Below, piece by piece: positions 4,015 through 64,000 of a DNA stretch of 64,000 bases. The notes beneath the pieces are model-generated. The model ran no database searches, was not told the origin of the DNA, and worked only from the letters and a program-made list of their open reading frames with translations. The stretch comes from an uncultured Erysipelotrichaceae bacterium (GTDB taxonomy: Bacteria > Bacillota_I > Bacilli_A > RF39 > UBA660). A program made the position numbers and the translations under genes. Each line of letters starts with the position of its first letter. Position 1 is the stretch's first letter. The stretch spans positions 20,129 to 84,128 of the forward strand of contig CADCJQ010000003.1 of the NCBI GenBank assembly GCA_902801795.1. The letters are read 5' to 3'.

Positions 4015-4626
4015 ATGAAAAAAGTAAATCAAAAAACAAAAAAGGTAGAAAGGGAAATGGATGTTGTATTCTTACTAGATCGTAGTGGTTCAATGCATGG
4101 AGTAGAAAATGATACTATTGGTGGTTATAATAGTTATCTAAAATCCTTAAAGGGAAGTAATATTAAAGTTACAACTATTCTTTTTGATGATAAGTATGAA
4201 ATAATTACCGATAGATGTCCATTAAGTAAGATGAAAGAGTTAAATAATGACATTTATTATGTTAGAGGATGTACGGCGCTTTTGGATGCTATAGGAAAAA
4301 CAATTATTAAATTAGAAGGAAATAATCCTAAGAAAGTACTATTTGTTATTACAACAGATGGACTTGAAAACGCTTCCCATGAATTTAGTAAAGAGAAAAT
4401 TAAAAAGATGATACAAGAACATCAAGATTGGGAATTTATGTATATTGGAGCTGATATTGATTCTTATAGTGAAGGAGAAAGTATTGGTATAAATCGTCAT
4501 AATATTGCTAATTATGAAAAAAGCTGTGGCGGAGTTTCAAAATTATTTGCATCTGTTGGTAAGGCTTCAAAATGTATGTATGAAAAAAATATGATAAATG
4601 ATGATTGGAAAGAAGAACTTAATTAG
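4015..4626 (+). CDS. von Willebrand factor type A (vWA) domain protein
   Basis: MIDAS-like motif VVFLLDRSGSM, then a TTD-type motif (VITTDGLEN), typical of vWA domains. Confidence 0.65.
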   Translation: MKKVNQKTKKVEREMDVVFLLDRSGSMHGVENDTIGGYNSYLKSLKGSNIKVTTILFDDKYEIITDRCPLSKMKELNNDIYYVRGCTALLDAIGKTIIKLEGNNPKKVLFVITTDGLENASHEFSKEKIKKMIQEHQDWEFMYIGADIDSYSEGESIGINRHNIANYEKSCGGVSKLFASVGKASKCMYEKNMINDDWKEELN

Positions 4627-5960: not shown

Positions 5961-6062
5961 ATTTAAGCACTTGAAAAAGTTGCTGAAATGATCTTTGAAA
6001 ACTGAGCAAAACGTCAATTTTTTGTAGCTAGGATTATTAATTATAAAAAAGACTTTAAATAT

Positions 6063-7593
<1,531 letters not shown>

Positions 7594-7815
7594 ATGGAGT
7601 TAAATATCCGTATCTAGCTATTAAATATTGACTGTATGTTTTGCTTAGTTTTGAGAGATCATTTTTGATTTCTCTAGAAATAGTTCTTTGAAAACTGAAT
7701 AATGTGGTTATATATTCTTAACGAGCGAATATATAACATGCAAATATATTGATTAAGTGTATATTTGTTATAAAATCTCATCAAATTAGGATAGAAATAT
7801 CAAAAAAACAATGGT

Positions 7816-10600
<2,785 letters not shown>

Positions 10601-53642: not shown

Positions 53643-53717
53643 GCCGACTTAGCACAGTGGTAGTGCAACGCATTCGTAACGCGTAGGTCACTGGTTCAAA
53701 TCCGGTAGTCGGCACCA
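53643..53717 (+). tRNA. tRNA-Thr (anticodon CGT)
   Basis: GCCGACTTAGCACAGTGGTAGTGCAACGCATTCGTAACGCGTAGGTCACTGGTTCAAATCCGGTAGTCGGCACCA. Cloverleaf with anticodon loop TTCGTAA. Encoded CCA. Confidence 0.85.
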
Positions 53718-53811
53718 TATTAGTGTGAAACTCGGACACTTTCCGAGATGCAATAAATGAACTAACTCTTTAAAGTTAGTTTTTTTGTGTTTCAGAAAGG
53801 AGTGATGAGTA

Positions 53812-54083
53812 TGTTTAAATTAGAAACTAAAAAACTTACAATAAGTGAATCATTAAGAAAGAAGATTGAAATAATATGTAGTTTTGCAAATGTTAAATAT
53901 GAACTTATAGAAGGTAGTATTATATCAGTTAAAGACACTAATTTAGGTTTTGTTAAGCCACATGTATTAAAAGTTAAAGGAAATGATTATCTTCTATTTG
54001 AAGATACTAAAACAGTTTTTATAAATGGTTATAAAGATAAAATTAAATTAACTGAATTAGAAGAATATCTAAAGAATAATTAA
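53812..54083 (+). CDS. small hypothetical protein (90 aa) preceding the serine recombinase
   Basis: GAAAGGAG RBS. Its 5' end (MFKLE) recurs in the deletion scar at 62783. Confidence 0.4.
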
Positions 54084-54180
54084 TATCTATTCCACGAAGT
54101 GGGAATTGACAATGAAATAAAAAATGATAGTATAAATAATCAAGAAATGTTTACTTTTTAACTGAGAAAGGAGAATTTGA

Positions 54181-56061
<1,881 letters not shown>

Positions 56062-56139
56062 TTGAAAAAATGTTTGGTGGTATTTTTACTGAAAATAAAA
56101 TAAAAAAAAATAATATGGTGGTAAAAAAGTGTTCTCCTA

Positions 56140-56340
56140 AAATCATTATATAATAAGGAAATGAGAGAAAAGAGACCACCGAAAGTGGTCCATTTTGCAA
56201 GTGCAAAATAAGTTTGGTCCCATGTAAATACTAGATTTTTCTAGGGTTTGTATGAATTCTAGGACCAATCTCTTATGCTCTTGTTAATTTATAAAAAAAA
56301 TATATTAATTTTGGACCACTAGAAGAACACTGAGTGTTCT
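56140..56340. repeat. cluster of GGACCA/TGGTCC half-sites and short palindromes downstream of the recombinase gene
   Basis: gagaccaccgaaagtggtcc, tttggtccc, ctaggaccaatc, ttggaccactag and the gaacactgagtgttc palindrome lie within 200 nt. Absent from the degraded second cassette. Confidence 0.4.
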
Positions 56341-56377
56341 TAATAAAAACTAGTTTACATACTCGAAAGTGTCAAAT

Positions 56378-56409
56378 ATTATTATTGTTATTATTATTAT
56401 TATTATTAT
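56378..56409. repeat. ATT trinucleotide microsatellite (about 10 units, one interrupted) in the promoter region of the DGR target gene
   Basis: attattattGttattattattattattattatc. The corresponding tract upstream of the second paralog (62936-62961) is shorter. Confidence 0.8.
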
Positions 56410-56422
56410 CACCGCTGGTCAT

Positions 56423-56468
56423 TGTAAAATAATTGGAAATGTAAAATAAATAGTTGAAAAATGTAAAA
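56423..56468 (+). promoter_or_regulatory. tandem direct repeats (TTG-G/A-AAA-n-TGTAAAA) upstream of the target gene; candidate regulator binding sites
   Basis: tgtaaaataattggaaatgtaaaataaatagttgaaaaatgtaaaac. The same architecture is conserved at 62972-63018 before the paralog. Confidence 0.45.
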
Positions 56469-56516
56469 CAATTATTTATAATAATATTGTAAGATTAGAT
56501 GATAGGAGTGACGATT

Positions 56517-58769
56517 ATGATTAAATCAAAAAAACAAATGTTTGTAGTAATTGGAGCATTTGCATTAGTAATGTTATTAGGAAGTATAACATATGCATTT
56601 TTTAATTATACAAGAACTGGAACAGCGAATACAATTAGAGTAGGAAGAATAGCTTTTAATTCATCACAATCAGGAAATATAAATTTAACTAATGCTTTTC
56701 CAATAACAAGTAGTGAAGCAGAAACAGATACAACTAACGCCAAGAGTGTCGCCATAACTGTAACTGGTGATACAGACTATAGTGGTGGAGTAGAATATGT
56801 CGTTACTGCAAGTGATGTTAATATGACAGTAGGAAGTGGAATTAATGCAAAAGAATTGCCACTAGCATTAGAAATATCAGTAACTGGAAATAATAGTAAT
56901 ACATTAGGAACAGAGGAAACAGGTGATTATTATACTAATAGAGATAATTATCAGGTTAGTAAATATAAAATAGAATATGATGGAGAATTAGAAGAAGGAA
57001 GCCATTTATTAGTAGGCTATATTGCGCCAAATACCACAAGTGGAACGGCTGAAGGAGTAGATGGAGTTATTAATATTAAAGCATATATTGATGCAAGTAA
57101 AGTATTAATAAGTGATACCTATGATGGAACAGAGTCAGATAATATGGGAACACCTAATTCATTAGCAGAAGGGAAAACTGTATTTACTACAACTGAATGG
57201 AATAGTATTCAAAGTTCACCATTATCATTTAAATTAAAAGTAGAAGCTAATGAAGGAATATGGGTAGAAGAACCATTAACTTTAAGTCAATCTATAGCAA
57301 GACAAGTAAGTACCGCAAGTTATATAGCAAGTTACGACGATATCATCTCATCAAATCCAACATTTACAACCCAAGATCAAGTATCAACAAGTGCAACAAA
57401 ACAAACTGTTTATTATTATACTGGAAATGAAGCAGCAGCAAATGCTAATGTTTTATTTGCCGGATATTGTTGGCAGGTCATCAGAACTACCGATAATGGT
57501 GGAGTAAGAATGATTTATAATGGAGTAGCCGTAAATAATAAATGTGAAACAACAAGGACAGCTACAAAAGGAATAAATGCAGTCGGTAATGGGACATTGC
57601 AAAGTATGAGTGCAGCTACTCTTTATGGAAGAAGTTATGATTATGACCTAACGACAGGAGAGTTTACTATCGAAAATAGTACTGGTTTGCCAACAAGTTG
57701 GACAACAAATGATAATAATAGTAATGGAACAGAAGATTATAAAGAATTAATAGGAACATATACATGCTTATCAAATTTAGATACATGTAGCACACTTTAT
57801 TATGTAGGAAGTATAAATCAGTCAAATTCTGCTCAAGCTTATGTAGCAAAATACACAATAGGAGATGTAGCACGTTATAGTCAATTAGGAACAAGTGCAT
57901 TTAATTCAAATTATTATAGTCCAGCATTAGTAGGATATATGTTTAACAAAGAATATGACTATAAATCAGGTAGTAAATCTGGGGAATATTATACTAGTGC
58001 AGCATGGGAAAATGGAGCATATGTATTATCAAATGGAAATGGAGGAACAGCCCCTGATGTGACACATCACTATATCTGTGATAGTGATTGTGCAAAAGTA
58101 AGATATTATTATTATGTAAGTGGAAGTAGTCATTACTATATATTACTAGAAAATGGAAAAACAGTAGAAGATGCATTAAAAGAGATGATTAATTATAAAA
58201 CAAATGCAAATGAAATAGATGAAAATATAAATGTATATAATTCGGCAATGAAAGGATATCTAGATAACTGGTATAAAAAGAATTTAACAGCTTATACTAG
58301 TTATCTAGATCAATCATCAGTATATTGTAATGATAGAAGTATAAGAGAATTAGGAGGATGGAATCCAACAAATTCTCCAAGTCTAACAACAACATTACAA
58401 TTCTATCAATATAGTGCAAATAGAGATTTAAACTGTGTAAATGAGTGGGATAGATTTGCTGTGACAAATACTAAAGCAAAATTAACATATCCAATAGGTT
58501 TATTAACTGAACCAGAAAGAAATTTAATGACTGCTAATTTTGCTAAAACAGGACAATATTACTGGGGGGCTTCGCCTAGCAGTTTCAGCGACAACCGTGC
58601 TCGTGTTCGTAGTGTCGATGCTACGGGTGGCCGTAGCGACCCTTCTGTGAGCAATAGTTATGGGGCGCGTGGCGTCGTTTCACTTCGACCTGGCACGAAG
58701 TTAGAAAATGGTACTGGAACATATAATGACCCATATATTGTAGGACCAATAGTTGCAAGAACAAGTTAG
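56517..58769 (+). CDS. DGR target (variable) protein with SipW/TasA-class signal peptide and C-terminal variable region
   Basis: N-terminus MIKSKKQMFVVIGAFALVMLLGSITYAFFNYT resembles TasA/camelysin SipW-cognate signals. The C-terminal 40 codons (WGASPSSFSDNRARVRSVDATGGRSDPSVSNSYGARGVVS) are encoded by the VR, which matches the TR at non-adenine positions. Confidence 0.8.
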   Translation: MIKSKKQMFVVIGAFALVMLLGSITYAFFNYTRTGTANTIRVGRIAFNSSQSGNINLTNAFPITSSEAETDTTNAKSVAITVTGDTDYSGGVEYVVTASDVNMTVGSGINAKELPLALEISVTGNNSNTLGTEETGDYYTNRDNYQVSKYKIEYDGELEEGSHLLVGYIAPNTTSGTAEGVDGVINIKAYIDASKVLISDTYDGTESDNMGTPNSLAEGKTVFTTTEWNSIQSSPLSFKLKVEANEGIWVEEPLTLSQSIARQVSTASYIASYDDIISSNPTFTTQDQVSTSATKQTVYYYTGNEAAANANVLFAGYCWQVIRTTDNGGVRMIYNGVAVNNKCETTRTATKGINAVGNGTLQSMSAATLYGRSYDYDLTTGEFTIENSTGLPTSWTTNDNNSNGTEDYKELIGTYTCLSNLDTCSTLYYVGSINQSNSAQAYVAKYTIGDVARYSQLGTSAFNSNYYSPALVGYMFNKEYDYKSGSKSGEYYTSAAWENGAYVLSNGNGGTAPDVTHHYICDSDCAKVRYYYYVSGSSHYYILLENGKTVEDALKEMINYKTNANEIDENINVYNSAMKGYLDNWYKKNLTAYTSYLDQSSVYCNDRSIRELGGWNPTNSPSLTTTLQFYQYSANRDLNCVNEWDRFAVTNTKAKLTYPIGLLTEPERNLMTANFAKTGQYYWGASPSSFSDNRARVRSVDATGGRSDPSVSNSYGARGVVSLRPGTKLENGTGTYNDPYIVGPIVARTS
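58562..58681 (+). repeat. DGR variable repeat (VR), in frame at the 3' end of the target gene
   Basis: 120 bp aligned gap-free to TR 59039-59158. Of 25 mismatches, 24 fall where TR has A. VR codons are diversified where TR has AAC/AAT. Confidence 0.85.
58682..58701 (+). other. hairpin immediately 3' of VR (IMH-associated stem-loop candidate)
   Basis: acttcg-acctggca-cgaagt directly after the GC-rich block GGGGCGCGTGGCG shared by VR and TR. Confidence 0.4.
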
Positions 58770-59038
58770 TGCCATTACTAATACACTGTTATATAAGTGC
58801 GAAAAACCTTTCGCACTTTAAAAATAAACCATTATCATGCATAATTCATTTAGGAATTATGCATGATTTATTATATAAATAAATATATAAAATATTGAAA
58901 TTAGTTGACACAAAAGAATTGACTTGAATTATGAGATTTGATTAAATATAATTTGTAATTTTGGGTTAAACATCTGTTTAACTTAGGGTTGTGTCATAAA
59001 TTCGTGCTTGTAGGAGCCCTGGGGGGCTTCGCCTAACA

Positions 59039-59158
59039 ATTTCAACAACAACAATGCTAATGTTCGTAATGTCAATACTACAGGTGACAATAACAACAAT
59101 AATGTGAACAATAGTAATGGGGCGCGTGGCGTATTTTCCAAATATAGAATAATATACT
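59039..59158 (+). repeat. DGR template repeat (TR)
   Basis: Intergenic, non-coding 120-bp copy of VR, rich in AAC/AAT triplets. Would read WGASPNNFNNNNANVRNVNTTGDNNNNNVNNSNGARGVFS in the VR frame. All but one difference from VR sit at its adenines. Confidence 0.85.
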
Positions 59159-59314
59159 AGTTTTTATAATGCATGCGTTATGGGTAAAAAGCTAGTTTTC
59201 TTAATTTTTGTGAAACAGATGCAACTCTATGGACAAATGTTCAAAATATATAAACAGTGTAGACTATGCTAACTATTTTTAGTTAGCATAGAAGCTGCTG
59301 TTTTGGGGTGAGAT

Positions 59315-59680
59315 ATGAGGCTAAACAGTGAATTTAAAATATATAATAAAGTAGCTGAATTTAATCGCTATGTAAGAAATACTATTACAAATTTTATACC
59401 AAGTGTTCATCGTGATATCAGAATACATTTACTTGATGAAAATTATTCACTATTACATAATCTTTTATCAGCCAGTTACAATAAAGGAAATATTAGAATT
59501 AAATATATTAGTGAAATGATAGTAAATATATCAATGATTGATTATTTATTAGGTGAGGTATCGGAATTATCAGAAAATAATTCTAAGAAAATTCTTCGAG
59601 CAATAAGAATGCTATCTGAAATAAAGAATATGATATATTCATGGAAAAATAATATCGATAATGGCAAAGAAGAAAATTAG
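59315..59680 (+). CDS. avd: DGR accessory variability determinant (Avd-like small basic helical protein)
   Basis: 121-aa helical, basic protein immediately upstream of, and overlapping, the RT gene. Size and position fit Avd. Sequence similarity to known Avd is not verifiable by eye. Confidence 0.55.
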   Translation: MRLNSEFKIYNKVAEFNRYVRNTITNFIPSVHRDIRIHLLDENYSLLHNLLSASYNKGNIRIKYISEMIVNISMIDYLLGEVSELSENNSKKILRAIRMLSEIKNMIYSWKNNIDNGKEEN

Positions 59681-61136
59681 CAATATATATAATGCACCAA
59701 TAACATTTACTAACATAAATAAGATGTGGAATATTGTCAGGAAGTCATGCAAAAATAAAAGAGGAATTTATGATTTTTCATTAAATAAAAACGCAAATAT
59801 ATATAATATTGGAAAGATATTAAAAGAAAAGAGTTATAAACCATATCCATATCGCTTATTTATGATATTTGAACCAAAACCAAGACTTGTAATGAGTCAG
59901 TGTGTTTATGACAAGATAATAAATCATTTTGTAGCCAATTATTATTTGCTTCCTTATTTAGAGAAAAAATTACTTAACTGTAATGTAGCAACAAGAAAGA
60001 ATATGGGCAGTGATTATGCTATAAAATTGACTAAAAAATATATTAATGAGATTAGAATAAAAAATCCTAATAAAGAGATATATGTCTTGAAAATGGATAT
60101 TAGTAAATATTTTTATACTATTAATCATGAGATACTTCTTAATATGTTAAAACGTGATATTAATGATTTTGATGTAATTAAATTAATAGAAAGTATTATA
60201 AGTGAAACCGATAAATCATATATTAATGACATGGTAGATAAATTAAATAAGCATAATAAAACGGATATTCCACATTATGAAAATAACGTTGGTTTATCTA
60301 TAGGAGCAATGACTAGCCAATTTTTAGCTATTTATTATTTAAATGATTTAGATCATTATATTAAAGAACAATTAAAATGCAAATATTTCATCCGATATAT
60401 GGATGATATTTTAATATTCGATGTTAATTTTGATAAATTAAAAAAATTATGGAAATTAATAGAAAATAAAGTAAATGATTTAAAACTCAATGTAAATCCT
60501 AAAAGTAATATTTTTAGATTAAGTAATGGTGTAATATTTGTAGGTTATAGGTTTAAAATAGATAATTGTGGTTTTAAAATGAAATTTAATAAGAAAACTA
60601 TTAAAAGAATTAATCACAAATTAAAATATTTACAAGAGAATAATATAGTTAAATATTATCGTTCATATGCTAGTTATTATGGTTATTACAAGAGGGTAAG
60701 AAGATATAGTGAGAGGAATTTTAAGATGAAATCTATTGAAAAATATAAAGCTTATAAAGAAAAGTATATGAATTGTATTGTTTTTATTAGAGAAGGAAAG
60801 TTTTATTGCACATTTGTTGATGATGCAATTTTTATATGGAATTTATTTGATTATAAATGGAATAAAAATTCTATTTCTTTTGGAGAATCTGCTTGTAGTA
60901 AAGTATTTGATTATTTGAAGAATAAAAGTATAGGTTATGTAATAGTAAGTAATGATGATATATTTGTTAAAGGTGATAATAAAATATATGAATTATATCT
61001 TGAGGCAGCAAAAATAAATTATGATAGATATTGTAAGAAAAAAGAGATATCATCATTAATTGATAGTATATTAGTAGAAAATATTAATTATTGTGATGAT
61101 ATTATCGATTATTTGAATAAATATAAAAGTAAATAA
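59661..61136 (+). CDS. diversity-generating retroelement reverse transcriptase
   Basis: RT motifs: YVLKMDISKYFYTINHEIL (motif 2), GLSIGAMTSQFLAIYYLNDLD (motif 4 with the DGR-specific [I/L]GxxxSQ in place of QGxxxSP), FIRYMDDILIF (motif 5, YMDD). Confidence 0.9.
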   Translation: MAKKKISNIYNAPITFTNINKMWNIVRKSCKNKRGIYDFSLNKNANIYNIGKILKEKSYKPYPYRLFMIFEPKPRLVMSQCVYDKIINHFVANYYLLPYLEKKLLNCNVATRKNMGSDYAIKLTKKYINEIRIKNPNKEIYVLKMDISKYFYTINHEILLNMLKRDINDFDVIKLIESIISETDKSYINDMVDKLNKHNKTDIPHYENNVGLSIGAMTSQFLAIYYLNDLDHYIKEQLKCKYFIRYMDDILIFDVNFDKLKKLWKLIENKVNDLKLNVNPKSNIFRLSNGVIFVGYRFKIDNCGFKMKFNKKTIKRINHKLKYLQENNIVKYYRSYASYYGYYKRVRRYSERNFKMKSIEKYKAYKEKYMNCIVFIREGKFYCTFVDDAIFIWNLFDYKWNKNSISFGESACSKVFDYLKNKSIGYVIVSNDDIFVKGDNKIYELYLEAAKINYDRYCKKKEISSLIDSILVENINYCDDIIDYLNKYKSK

Positions 61137-61443
61137 TTGATTATAATAATATGTATTATAAATGATTATTTGACTAATTCAGAATTATAGGTTGACTTTT
61201 TCGGAATAGTAGTTTGATAATGCTTCTTTTAAAAAAATATATAATATATTCTTCATTTATTTAGATGCATAGAACATTATTGAGTATTATAATGTTTGTG
61301 ATATGAATATTTATATATATTTTACTCAAAATAATAATGTATAATTGTTCAAAAATGCGAGTGAACAAAAAAATAATTCCCTAAAAATAAAAAAAATTGA
61401 CTTTTAGGGAATTGAATGATATATTTATATTGGGTGATAAAAG

Positions 61444-62637
61444 ATGAAGATAATTCCTAGAGATGAATATTTAAGCAAAATGATTAGGGTAATAAATACA
61501 CCAGATATTAAAGTGTTGACTGGTGTTAGAAGATGTGGTAAGTCAAAATTATTAGAATTGTTTATAGAGTATATTGATAAAAATATTAAAAACAACAATA
61601 TTATTCACATTAATTTTAATGAGAGAAAATATGACGGATTATTAACTGGTGACAAATTATATGATTATATTTCTAATAAATATGTTAAAAATAAAATCAA
61701 TTTTGTTTTAATTGATGAAATTCAAAAATGTGATGGTTTTGAAGATACAATTAATAGTATTCATTCTGAAGAAAAATATAAAATATATATAACTGGTTCA
61801 AATGCATTTTTACTTTCTAGTGATCTAGCTACATTATTTACTGGTAGAACTTTTGAAATTAATATCTATCCTTTTTCATTTGAAGAATACAATAGATATT
61901 TTAATAATCAAAATCATTATTTATCTTTTAATTCATTTATGAATGATGGTGGAATGTCAGGATCATATTTGTACGATAATGTAGAGGATAAAAATCAGTA
62001 TTTAAAGAGCATATATAATACAATGATTTTGCGTGATATTGTTGGAAAGAATAATATTAAAAATGAATCATTACTTAACAAATTAAGTGATTATTTACTT
62101 GATAATATTTCAAATATTACTTCATCGACTAAAATAGAAAATGTCTTGAAAGGTGAATTAGAAACTGGTGATCATAAAACCATATCAAATTATTTAGATT
62201 ATTTGTGCAATGCTTTTGCTTTTTATAGAGTGAGAAGATTTGATATAAAAGGAAAGAGTTTTCTTAAATCGCAAGATAAATATTATTTAGTAGATACTTC
62301 ATTTAGAAGAGCAATCCATGGAAGAAAAGAAGAAGATTATGGCAGAATATTAGAAAATATTGTTGCAGTTGAATTATTAAGACGTGGATATGATATTTAT
62401 GTTGGTACACTATATGAAAAGGAAATAGATTTTGTTGCTATGAAAAGGGATGAACAAATTTATATTCAAGTAGTAGACAATATTGATAATGAAGCAACAA
62501 TGAAAAGAGAAATAACTCCTTTATTAAGCATAAAAGATGGTTATAAAAAGATGATTATTGCCAGATTAAATCATGAAGGATTTATTAAAGATGGTGTAGA
62601 AATAATTGACATTTCGGACTGGTTATTAAATAAGTAA
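61444..62637 (+). CDS. AAA-family ATPase (AAA_14 + DUF4143 architecture)
   Basis: Walker A GVRRCGKSKL. Walker B VLIDEIQ. C-terminal DUF4143-like region. About 400 aa, typical for this widespread family. Confidence 0.65.
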   Translation: MKIIPRDEYLSKMIRVINTPDIKVLTGVRRCGKSKLLELFIEYIDKNIKNNNIIHINFNERKYDGLLTGDKLYDYISNKYVKNKINFVLIDEIQKCDGFEDTINSIHSEEKYKIYITGSNAFLLSSDLATLFTGRTFEINIYPFSFEEYNRYFNNQNHYLSFNSFMNDGGMSGSYLYDNVEDKNQYLKSIYNTMILRDIVGKNNIKNESLLNKLSDYLLDNISNITSSTKIENVLKGELETGDHKTISNYLDYLCNAFAFYRVRRFDIKGKSFLKSQDKYYLVDTSFRRAIHGRKEEDYGRILENIVAVELLRRGYDIYVGTLYEKEIDFVAMKRDEQIYIQVVDNIDNEATMKREITPLLSIKDGYKKMIIARLNHEGFIKDGVEIIDISDWLLNK

Positions 62638-62739
62638 TATGTTATAATTTTATTAGTTAGTAAATTTATTGCTAACATTAATTTGGCAATTGGTTATGGA
62701 ACCTCCACCCAATTGGCACCATAATGATTTTTACTAACT

Positions 62740-62905
62740 AGAAATAGTTAGTTTTTTTGTGTTTCAGAGAGGAGTGATGAATATGTTTAAATTAGAAAAT
62801 GGAGAATATTTTTCTAATGAAGGAGATATTCCAATTAGAATAATATTAATAGATGCTTGAAAACTTGAACGTGATAATAAAATAAGGTTAAATAATTAAA
62901 AAATA
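62740..62905 (+). pseudogene. deletion scar: 5' end of the small ORF fused to the 3' end of the serine recombinase gene (second, degraded cassette)
   Basis: agttagtttttttgtgtttcagagaggagtgatgaatatgtttaaattagaaa matches 53777-53826. It then joins sequence matching recombinase codons about 570-600 (tctaat..gatattccaattagaataat..ttaatagatg...cttgaac.tgataataaaataag). Fused [28 protein letters not shown] stops at 62860. Confidence 0.65.
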
Positions 62906-62935
62906 AAAAAGATGGTAAAAAAAGTATTCATCTAA

Positions 62936-62961
62936 ATTATTATTATTATAATTATTATTAT
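62936..62961. repeat. ATT microsatellite, shorter and interrupted, upstream of the paralog
   Basis: attattattattataattattattatc, homologous in position to 56378-56409. Confidence 0.7.
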
Positions 62962-62971
62962 CGCTGTCTAT

Positions 62972-63018
62972 TGTAAAATGTTTGAAAATGTAAAAGAAAT
63001 GTTTGAAAACTGTAAGTA
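62972..63018 (+). promoter_or_regulatory. conserved TGTAAAA/TTGAAAA direct-repeat array upstream of the paralog
   Basis: ttgtaaaatgtttgaaaatgtaaaagaaatgtttgaaaactgtaagt parallels 56423-56468. Confidence 0.45.
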
Positions 63019-63072
63019 ATTATTATATAATTACATTATAAGATATTTAATGATAGAAGAGGAGTGGTAATA

Positions 63073-64000
63073 ATGATTAAATCAAGAAAACAAATGCTCA
63101 TTGTAATTGGTGTATTTGCATTAGTAATGCTATTAAGTACTGTAACTTATGCCTTTTTTAACTATACTCGTACAGGTGCAGCCAATACTGTTAGTGTAGG
63201 AAGAATAAGTTTTGTAACAAGACAAACAAAAACAATTAGTTTAAATAATTTATTCCCTATTGATCCAACCGATACAGAAGCAATGGCTGATGAAACAAAA
63301 GTAGGTACAGTAGAAATTGAAATTGAAGGAGATACTGATTATGTAGATGGTGTAGAATATTTAGTTTCTAGTGAAAATACAAATATTTATACAACAACAG
63401 GAAAAGTAGTTCCAATTAGTTTAGATGTAGCAGTAACTAATTTAGGAACATCTAGCAACAACTATTTTACAGCAAGAGAAGATAAAAATGCTACAATTTA
63501 TAAGAAATTAGTAGGTGATACATTAGTAGGTGACCAAATGCTATTAGTAGGATTTATTAAACCTAATACAACAAGTGGACAAGCCGAAGGAGTTAATGGT
63601 AAATTAACTATTAAGGCATATTTAGATAAAAATAAAATATTAATAAGTGATACCTATGATGGAACAGAATCAGATAATATGGGAACCCCAAACTCTATGG
63701 CAGAAGGTAAAACAGTATTAACAACAACGGATTGGAATGCGCTTCAGGCTTCTCCAATCACCTTCCAAATAAAAGTAGAAGCAAATGAAGGAATCTGGGT
63801 AAAAGGTTCTCTTGAAGAAATAATGAAACAAGAAAACTTTGATACTACTAAAAATAGAGGAATATTAGATAATGAACAAAGTGAATTTGTAAGTGAGCAG
63901 GAACAGAAAATGATGCATATCCAATTGTTTATTATCGAGGAGCAGTAGAAGATAATAATGTTGTATTCAATAATAAATGCTGGAAAGCAGTAAGAACAAC
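63073..64000 (+). CDS. paralog of the DGR target protein (SipW/TasA-type signal), with apparent frameshift near 63900; continues beyond window
   Basis: MIKSRKQMLIVIGVFALVMLLSTVTYAFFNYTRTGAANTVSVGRISF, then blocks shared with 56517..58769 (TVEIEIEGDTDYVDGVEYLVS, LISDTYDGTESDNMGTPNS, KVEANEGIWV). After about 63897 homology continues in another frame (YYRGAVEDNNVVFNNKCWKAVRTT, cf. YYYTGNEAAANANVLFAGYCWQVIRTT). Confidence 0.6.

Follow-up and report, generated by a model that had tools for sequence, protein, structure and literature searches.

A diversity-generating retroelement and a frameshifted paralog of its target gene in probable tandem integrative elements at a tRNA-Thr gene of an uncultured Erysipelotrichaceae bacterium

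Background

Proteins of the TasA/camelysin group (Peptidase_M73, PF12389) are substrates of the SipW signal peptidase in Bacillus, and tandem accretion of integrative elements at tRNA genes is known from genomic islands. Diversity-generating retroelements (DGRs) with several targets or with remote targets have already been described, as have reverse transcriptases (RTs) with a MutS_I-like extension, although the 2018 survey reported such an extension for only three RTs (PMC5758913). Membrane-anchored or secreted cellular DGR targets are known as well (PMC8144416), and a C-lectin-like domain, DUF6273, has been reported as a DGR target in Faecalibacterium prophages and in 'tentaclins' (PMC11792537, PMC10743442). 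Here we analyzed a stretch of 64,000 nucleotides (nt), called the window below, from an uncultured Erysipelotrichaceae bacterium (assembly GCA_902801795.1, contig CADCJQ010000003.1, positions 20,129 to 84,128). It holds a DGR target gene (copy 1) and a paralog of it that changes frame (copy 2). What an earlier note on this DNA overlooked is that each of the two genes is part of a mobile element of its own, the two elements lying in tandem at a tRNA-Thr gene. The account that we consider probable is that two related integrative elements were placed in tandem at the 3' end of this gene, of which element 1, with its DGR, is intact and element 2 has decayed, leaving copy 2 as a pseudogene. The less usual side of the locus is its packaging, namely a minimal serine-recombinase element at tRNA-Thr with a full DGR and a target bearing a TasA/camelysin-type leader; a literature search for such a leader on a DGR target returned no match combining both terms.

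Results

Element 1 at the tRNA-Thr gene

The homology of the window to two other loci, L006 and L007, was confined to 53711-62740. A tRNA-Thr gene lies at the left end of this interval, and the 9-nt sequence GGCACCATA had exactly 2 matches in the 64 kb, both at the element ends, with 0.15 expected by chance. The bounded homology, the tRNA-Thr gene and the two repeat copies together therefore define an element of about 9.0 kb. It comprises six genes, and its order is small open reading frame (ORF), large serine recombinase, target gene, template repeat (TR), Avd, RT and ATPase. The features outside the DGR are as follows, with protein lengths in amino acids (aa):

53643..53717, + strand: tRNA-Thr(CGT) gene found with ARAGORN, the putative integration target, with its 3' end overlapping the left attachment (att) core
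53711..53719, + strand: left 9-nt direct repeat GGCACCATA (att core)
53718..62721, + strand: element 1, integrative DGR element of 9.0 kb, 91-95% identical to L006 and L007, with different flanks
53787..54083, + strand: small ORF of 98 aa at the left end of the element, no family match; a 90-aa gene in L001 and L006
54181..56061, + strand: large serine recombinase, 626 aa (Resolvase 6e-35, Recombinase 8.5e-18, Zn_ribbon_recom 6e-6)
61444..62637, + strand: AAA_14/DUF4143 ATPase (2.2e-32 and 3.2e-18), last gene of element 1
62715..62723, + strand: right copy of GGCACCATA at the junction of elements 1 and 2, preceded by a degenerate stretch resembling a tRNA 3' end

The same element was seen in other surroundings. 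In L006, a tRNA-Thr(GGT) gene stands at the corresponding left end, after sigE/spoIIGA, and an unrelated gene follows downstream, while in L020 an IS110-like transposase lies downstream of the element. The hallmarks of a serine-recombinase element are thus present, namely a recombinase gene, terminal direct repeats and occurrence of the same element in different genomic contexts, and both its boundaries and its mobility are evident from these comparisons. The recombinase presumably catalyzes insertion at tRNA-Thr. The AAA_14/DUF4143 ATPase accompanies the element in L006-L012 and L020 and was the constant last gene in every context seen; it may have an accessory or maintenance function. A prophage was also considered for this interval and was rejected because none of the six element genes is structural and no match was found in IMG/VR.

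Element 2 and the paralogous gene pair

A second, diverged element starts straight after the right GGCACCATA repeat, from 62722, with 76-89% nt identity to element 1. Its parts, and the two paralogous genes, are listed below:

56378..56407, + strand: (ATT)n tract of 10 units, about 110-140 nt upstream of copy 1
56517..58769, + strand: copy 1, DGR target gene, 750 aa, with the exact protein on 3 contigs
62733..62798, + strand: homolog of the left inner end of element 1 (53761-53826, 89%), with the small-ORF start
62790..62898, + strand: remnant of a serine recombinase 3' end, 81% to 55835-55945, joined directly to the start of the small ORF; in-frame TGA at 62858-62860
63073..63948, + strand: copy 2, frame 1, with 274 homologous codons, 17 out-of-frame codons and a TAG stop
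63894..63895, + strand: junction of a 64-nt deletion, from comparison with L001, L003 and L021
63897..64000, + strand: continuation of copy 2 in the +1 frame (AGTENDAYPIVYYRGAVEDNNVVFNNKCWKAVRT) past the window end, matching P0003 and P0272

Since the recombinase remnant is fused to the small-ORF start, about 2 kb are missing from element 2. The stretch 62937-63249 then matches the region upstream of copy 1 together with its 5' end, and this degraded element has copy 2 as its target-type gene. Elsewhere, in L016 at ~4430-4530, sequence homologous to the left inner end of the element (the small-ORF start) precedes P0123, a copy-1-type gene that lacks a cassette, and no recombinase is present; the stretch resembles a further orphaned remnant of an element.

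The paralogy of the two genes, which had been proposed from the letters of the window, was confirmed. Copy 1 and the reconstructed copy 2 were 47% identical over 330 aa (BLASTP, E=4e-94), and two DNA repeats join the genes, 56504-56704 with 63060-63260 (75%) and 57007-57270 with 63542-63805 (78%). The regions upstream of both genes are also alike (56388-56495 and 62937-63044, 79%), and the leaders of the proteins are near-identical (..LLGSITYAFFNYTRTG.. and ..LLSTVTYAFFNYTRTG..). A simple local duplication of one gene was rejected, because the element end and the recombinase remnant upstream were duplicated too.

The (ATT)n tract also occurs upstream of copy 2, where it has 8 units (62936-62959), and in L006 (~4547-4564) and L007, where it has 6. 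Its length could tune promoter activity. Three TGTAAAA-containing repeats come after the tract upstream of the target genes.

The frame change in copy 2 is a 64-nt deletion

The frame change had been placed near 63897, and homology to copy 1 does resume there in the +1 frame. Frame 1 of copy 2 reads ..EFVS followed by EQEQKMMHIQLFIIEEQ, ends in ..EFVSEQEQKMMHIQLFIIEEQ and stops at 63946-63948, while the family homology AGTENDAYPIVYYRGAVEDNNVVFNNKCWKAVRT restarts at 63897 in the +1 frame, after a TGA at 63894-63896. Two metagenome contigs, L001 and L003, equal the window up to 63894 and then continue with 57 nt, GCCAGTACAGGAATTGATTTTGGCGCTATTTCAAGTGATACCAATGGAAAAGGTGT, that are absent from it. 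These 57 nt code in frame for ASTGIDFGAISSDTNGKGV, as in the homologs P0001, P0003 and P0005. The entire missing piece was seen in L021, the locus that carries P0272; it is 64 nt long, has ..GGTGTTTACATGA at its end, and is succeeded by GAGCAGGAACAGAAAATGAT.., the sequence that the window also has there. P0001, P0003, P0005 and P0272 all run uninterrupted across the deleted stretch, which corresponds to the linker between the N-terminal module and the conserved core.

At the junction, microhomology amounted to at most 1 nt and no repeat tract was present. A slip of 1 nt in the A tract was therefore not retained as the cause, given the undeleted sequence in L001, L003 and L021, and the frame change does not lie in the A-rich tract in which the earlier note suggested looking for indels. 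Its suggestion of a phase-variable gene fared no better: 63894/63895 is free of homopolymers and of short tandem repeats, and a 64-nt deletion cannot be reversed by slippage, which rules out phase variation by tract length.

Other copy-2-type genes also carried frame-disrupting lesions. L021 has an independent 1-nt frameshift, and in L022 a separate frameshift divides P0003 from P0270, which suggests, on comparison of the sequences, that genes of this type often decay. A long (GACA)n microsatellite was noted at L022 17-78, ~140 nt upstream of the copy-2-type gene. Every copy-2-type gene in the databases is a fragment on a short contig. L001 (at window position 63950) and L003, two independent assemblies, stop at exactly the same base, for which paralog mosaicism or strain mixtures are possible reasons. 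An exact 35-mer from the window end had no match in JGI metagenomes or IMG/VR, and L005, 56% identical, was the sole relative found in a GTDB scan.

The DGR of copy 1

A canonical DGR has copy 1 as its target. The protein begins with a TasA/camelysin-like leader and a beta-sandwich N-module (aa 1-~255), continues with a conserved central region, and ends in a C-terminal, probably DUF6273/C-lectin-like domain that contains the variable region (VR). Over 120 nt, the VR differs from the TR at 24 of the 40 TR adenines and at 1 of the 80 other positions. The following parts were located:

58562..58681, + strand: VR, with A-specific differences from the TR
58795..58818, + strand: hairpin 26 nt past the copy-1 stop, perfect 10-bp stem and 4-nt loop (dG -10.1 kcal/mol, z -6.3)
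59019..59138, + strand: TR, AAY-rich coding in the VR frame
59315..59680, + strand: probable Avd accessory gene, 121 aa (bAvd 6e-4; NF033474 1e-4)
59661..61136, + strand: DGR RT, 491 aa (RVT_1 4.7e-15)

The RT, whose gene begins 520 nt downstream of the TR, was identified by the general RVT_1 model. It has a MutS_I-like C-terminal extension (aa 359-404; PF01624, E=1.1e-6) that is kept in all related elements. The matches of Avd were below the curated cut-offs (bAvd 20.7 bits against 40; NF033474 22.6 against 80), and its size and position fit. The hairpin could be a terminator or a DGR target-recognition hairpin.

The TR was identical or 1 nt different in L006, L007, L008, L017, L019 and L020, and the VRs differed among these loci, indicating that the lineage diversifies. 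Within the strain of the window itself (L001, L002 and L004) the VR was identical. In an alignment of 14 homologs, variation was concentrated at AAY-templated positions. Furthermore, a VR on a copy-1-type gene in L018 differs from the TR at 5 of 80 non-A and 23 of 40 A positions, and no TR was found within 4.8 kb downstream of it, where the neighbors are pilB-like and prepilin-like genes; the L018 gene is an orphan or remote target. In L018 1380-3396, this gene lies tail-to-tail with a PilB/GspE-like ATPase and adjoins a prepilin-like gene (MMKNKKGFVLTETLVV..).

The 3' end of copy-2-type genes

Copy 2 runs on past the window, and its 3' end was read through the relatives L021 (86-92% identical in the overlap) and L022 (82%). 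In both loci the gene ends in DUF6273-like sequence (YYWSLSP...GLRP.VSLKPG), with a patch of 57-58% GC in a gene of ~30% GC. The two patches share fixed blocks (TGGTCTTTGTCGCCT.. and ..AGTGGTCTTCG) and differ between them, being identical at 92 of 135 positions. Their best gapless match to the TR of the window left 42-43 of 80 non-A positions mismatched, where the real VR has 1 such mismatch and the orphan VR of L018 has 5, and these 3' ends are one codon shorter. A search of the window and of all fetched loci yielded no TR matching a copy-2-type VR. In L021, ABC-F and DnaD genes come next after the copy-2-type gene, and neither a TR nor an RT is present.

The earlier note had left open a second DGR target and a decaying copy. 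For the TR of the window the former is unlikely, given the mismatches in the relatives and the absence of a cassette before the ABC-F and DnaD genes of L021, while the latter fits best among the options that it offered. The copy-2 gene type has the appearance of a one-time target of another DGR, and one that is frequently in decay.

Protein family, leader and VR domain

The DGR target is part of a large family: its N-terminal module gave 406 matches and its C-terminal region 705. The module consists of the leader and a beta-sandwich of ~230 aa (model predicted local distance difference test score (pLDDT) 88), and it is joined to varied C-termini, with DUF285, Flg_new, LRR_5, Big_2 or a DGR-type region. 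F28-F29-N30-Y31 was invariant in 100 sequences.

Pieces of ~96-103 aa from the N-termini were compared with PF12389, for which the gathering cut-off is 22.5 bits. This family was the top Pfam match for 11 of 11 natural N-termini with the module (both window copies and 9 relatives; E 1.2e-5 to 6.4e-3), so the TasA/camelysin-like signal read from the letters of the window is supported, as homology of the leader. Copy 1 (16.8 bits) and copy 2 (19.1 bits) scored below the cut-off and P0005 (25.7) and a typed family consensus (26.2) above it; the match spans only positions 2-81 of the 196 in the profile. The whole window proteins gave no PF12389 match in the Pfam scan, and a Foldseek search of the N-module against PDB did not return the TasA fold (best E 0.02). 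TIGR04088, the model of the SipW-class signal peptide, gave no match at E<=10, and the TasA equivalog model matched weakly (E=0.086). Neither the window nor any of the 22 loci examined contained a SipW-like ORF (S[GSAD]SMxP).

The C-terminal 489 aa were modeled with a pLDDT of 96 and had no significant PDB match, with weak matches to C-lectins at E~2. In a BFVD search of this region, phage proteins with DUF6273 took ranks 1, 2, 4, 8 and 9 (best E 7.7e-4, probability up to 0.96). The window protein had no Pfam DUF6273 match, and the homologs P0212 (1.6e-7; 31.8 bits against a cut-off of 23.5) and P0144 (5e-4) matched the family. The C-terminal VR domain can thus be regarded as probably DUF6273/C-lectin-like, a known type of DGR target.

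Apart from these loci, the window at ~6000-10000 has a GC content of 43-46%, compared with a window average of ~26%, and presumably contains an rRNA operon.

Discussion

In element 1, the TR transcript would be reverse-transcribed with errors at adenines, and the cDNA would be written over the VR, which lies at the 3' end of copy 1. This replacement would change the ligand-binding face of the DUF6273/C-lectin-like tip domain. The tip would be borne by a beta-sandwich stalk, itself preceded by a TasA/camelysin-type N-terminal leader, and with such an arrangement the protein would thus be exported. It would then either stay attached to the cell through the leader helix or be set free by cleavage. 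Element 2 would be the older of the two; it has lost ~2 kb covering its recombinase, and its copy 2 carries the out-of-frame deletion. Copy 2 is then most likely a pseudogene left by the earlier insertion, neither a second substrate of the TR of element 1 nor a phase-variable gene.

Several points weigh against this account. The 3' part of copy 2 in the window's own genome, and the DNA that follows, lie outside the data, and its 3' end was taken from relatives; since L021 is only 86-92% identical to copy 2, this end rests on a proxy. The truncated product of 291 aa is on record from one contig only. The two other assemblies of the same strain, L001 and L003, are undeleted, and both stop at one and the same position, 57 nt beyond the junction, so the deletion could be a minority variant or an assembly problem. 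Finally, no tyrosine integrase is present, and tRNA 3' ends are classically targeted by tyrosine integrases, not by serine recombinases.

If the deletion is doubted, the frame change would be an assembly artefact or a rare variant and the gene would be intact in the strain, which is possible but on balance doubtful. The single contig with the 291-aa product, the fragmentary state of all copy-2-type matches on short contigs, and the departure of L001 and L003 from the window from 63895, with their ends 57 nt later, would all suit a spot that is unstable in assemblies. However, a 64-nt deletion with at most 1 nt of homology at its junction should not be able to arise from a k-mer mis-join, the independent frameshifts in L021 and L022 suggest genuine decay, and the adjoining recombinase remnant is separately degraded. 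The undeleted sequence in L001 and L003 would equally suit an intact allele that coexists in the population and is functional in some cells, with copy 2 being, or having been, the target of a different DGR whose TR lies past the window or at another place in the genome. We regard this as unlikely. In its favor, the VR-like regions of L021 and L022, with invariant blocks and differences between them, look as VRs from one TR would, and DUF6273 is precomputed on the related fragments P0276-P0278 and P0280. No matching TR turned up in the window or in any fetched locus, however, no cassette follows the gene in L021, and 3 of 3 copy-2-type genes read at the DNA level are frameshifted, at different sites.

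Much less probable is a live second target of the DGR in the window, with a VR past 64000 rewritten from the TR at 59019-59138. Cassette-less VRs of this TR lineage do exist, as in L018, and copy-2-type genes do end in a GC-rich, VR-like patch. Against this, their 3' ends mismatch the TR at more than half of the non-A positions and are one codon shorter, the frame of copy 2 is lost in this assembly before any VR is reached, and the orphan VRs that match the TR are on copy-1-type, not copy-2-type, genes. That the frame change is a switch, by tract-length phase variation or by programmed ribosomal frameshifting, is highly improbable. An A-rich stretch, CAGAAAATGATG, lies 8 nt past the junction and the two frames overlap by 50 nt (63897-63945), but the change maps to a deletion that slippage cannot reverse, at a site free of homopolymers and short tandem repeats. 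Inspection of the overlap by eye revealed no X-XXY-YYZ or prfB-like +1 site, and a rescued product would be without 22 residues of the conserved linker.

The frameshifted paralog is minor in itself, and it cautions against calling every neighboring paralog a second DGR target. A minimal self-mobile unit of DGR plus target at tRNA-Thr could explain the build-up of DGR-type surface-protein families and orphan VRs in gut Firmicutes, and the TasA/camelysin-type leader suggests a specific route of export or processing. As a tentative proposal, rumen Bacilli may harbor a stand-alone, non-phage 9-kb element that inserts at tRNA-Thr with a serine recombinase and carries a complete DGR together with a target bearing a TasA/camelysin-type leader, and repeated rounds of its insertion and decay may seed orphan variable surface or fibre proteins, some of which a resident cassette may still rewrite in trans.

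In comparison with the described systems, the locus resembles the multi-target and remote DGRs of Treponema denticola, Legionella and Stenotrophomonas (PMC5758913) in having one RT/TR cassette beside paralogous genes for C-lectin-type targets, and in the occurrence of cassette-less VRs with adenine-only changes, here in L018. It differs from them in that the neighboring paralog mismatches the TR, as read by proxy, and is broken, and in that the paralogs seem to be disseminated with a small integrative element that carries them, and not through duplication in place. With the DUF6273 phage targets ('tentaclins' and Faecalibacterium prophages; PMC11792537, PMC10743442) it shares a VR at the C-terminal end of a domain that is probably DUF6273-like; in contrast to these, the element has no phage genes and was not found in IMG/VR, and the window protein has no Pfam DUF6273 match.

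The likeness to TasA/camelysin is in the N-terminal ~60-80 residues, which align to profile positions 2-81 with a K-rich start, a hydrophobic helix, T-x-A-F-F-N and then ..N..x.G.I.F. Unlike the fibre subunits of ~260 aa, the proteins here have 400-890 aa and several domains, and the match is limited to the leader and the first strands. With islands at tRNA genes the locus has in common an intact tRNA gene on one side, a short direct repeat that bounds the element left and right, and a second, degraded element directly after the repeat. Whereas such islands usually carry tyrosine integrases, the sole recombinase at this locus is of the large serine type, and the cargo is a complete DGR.

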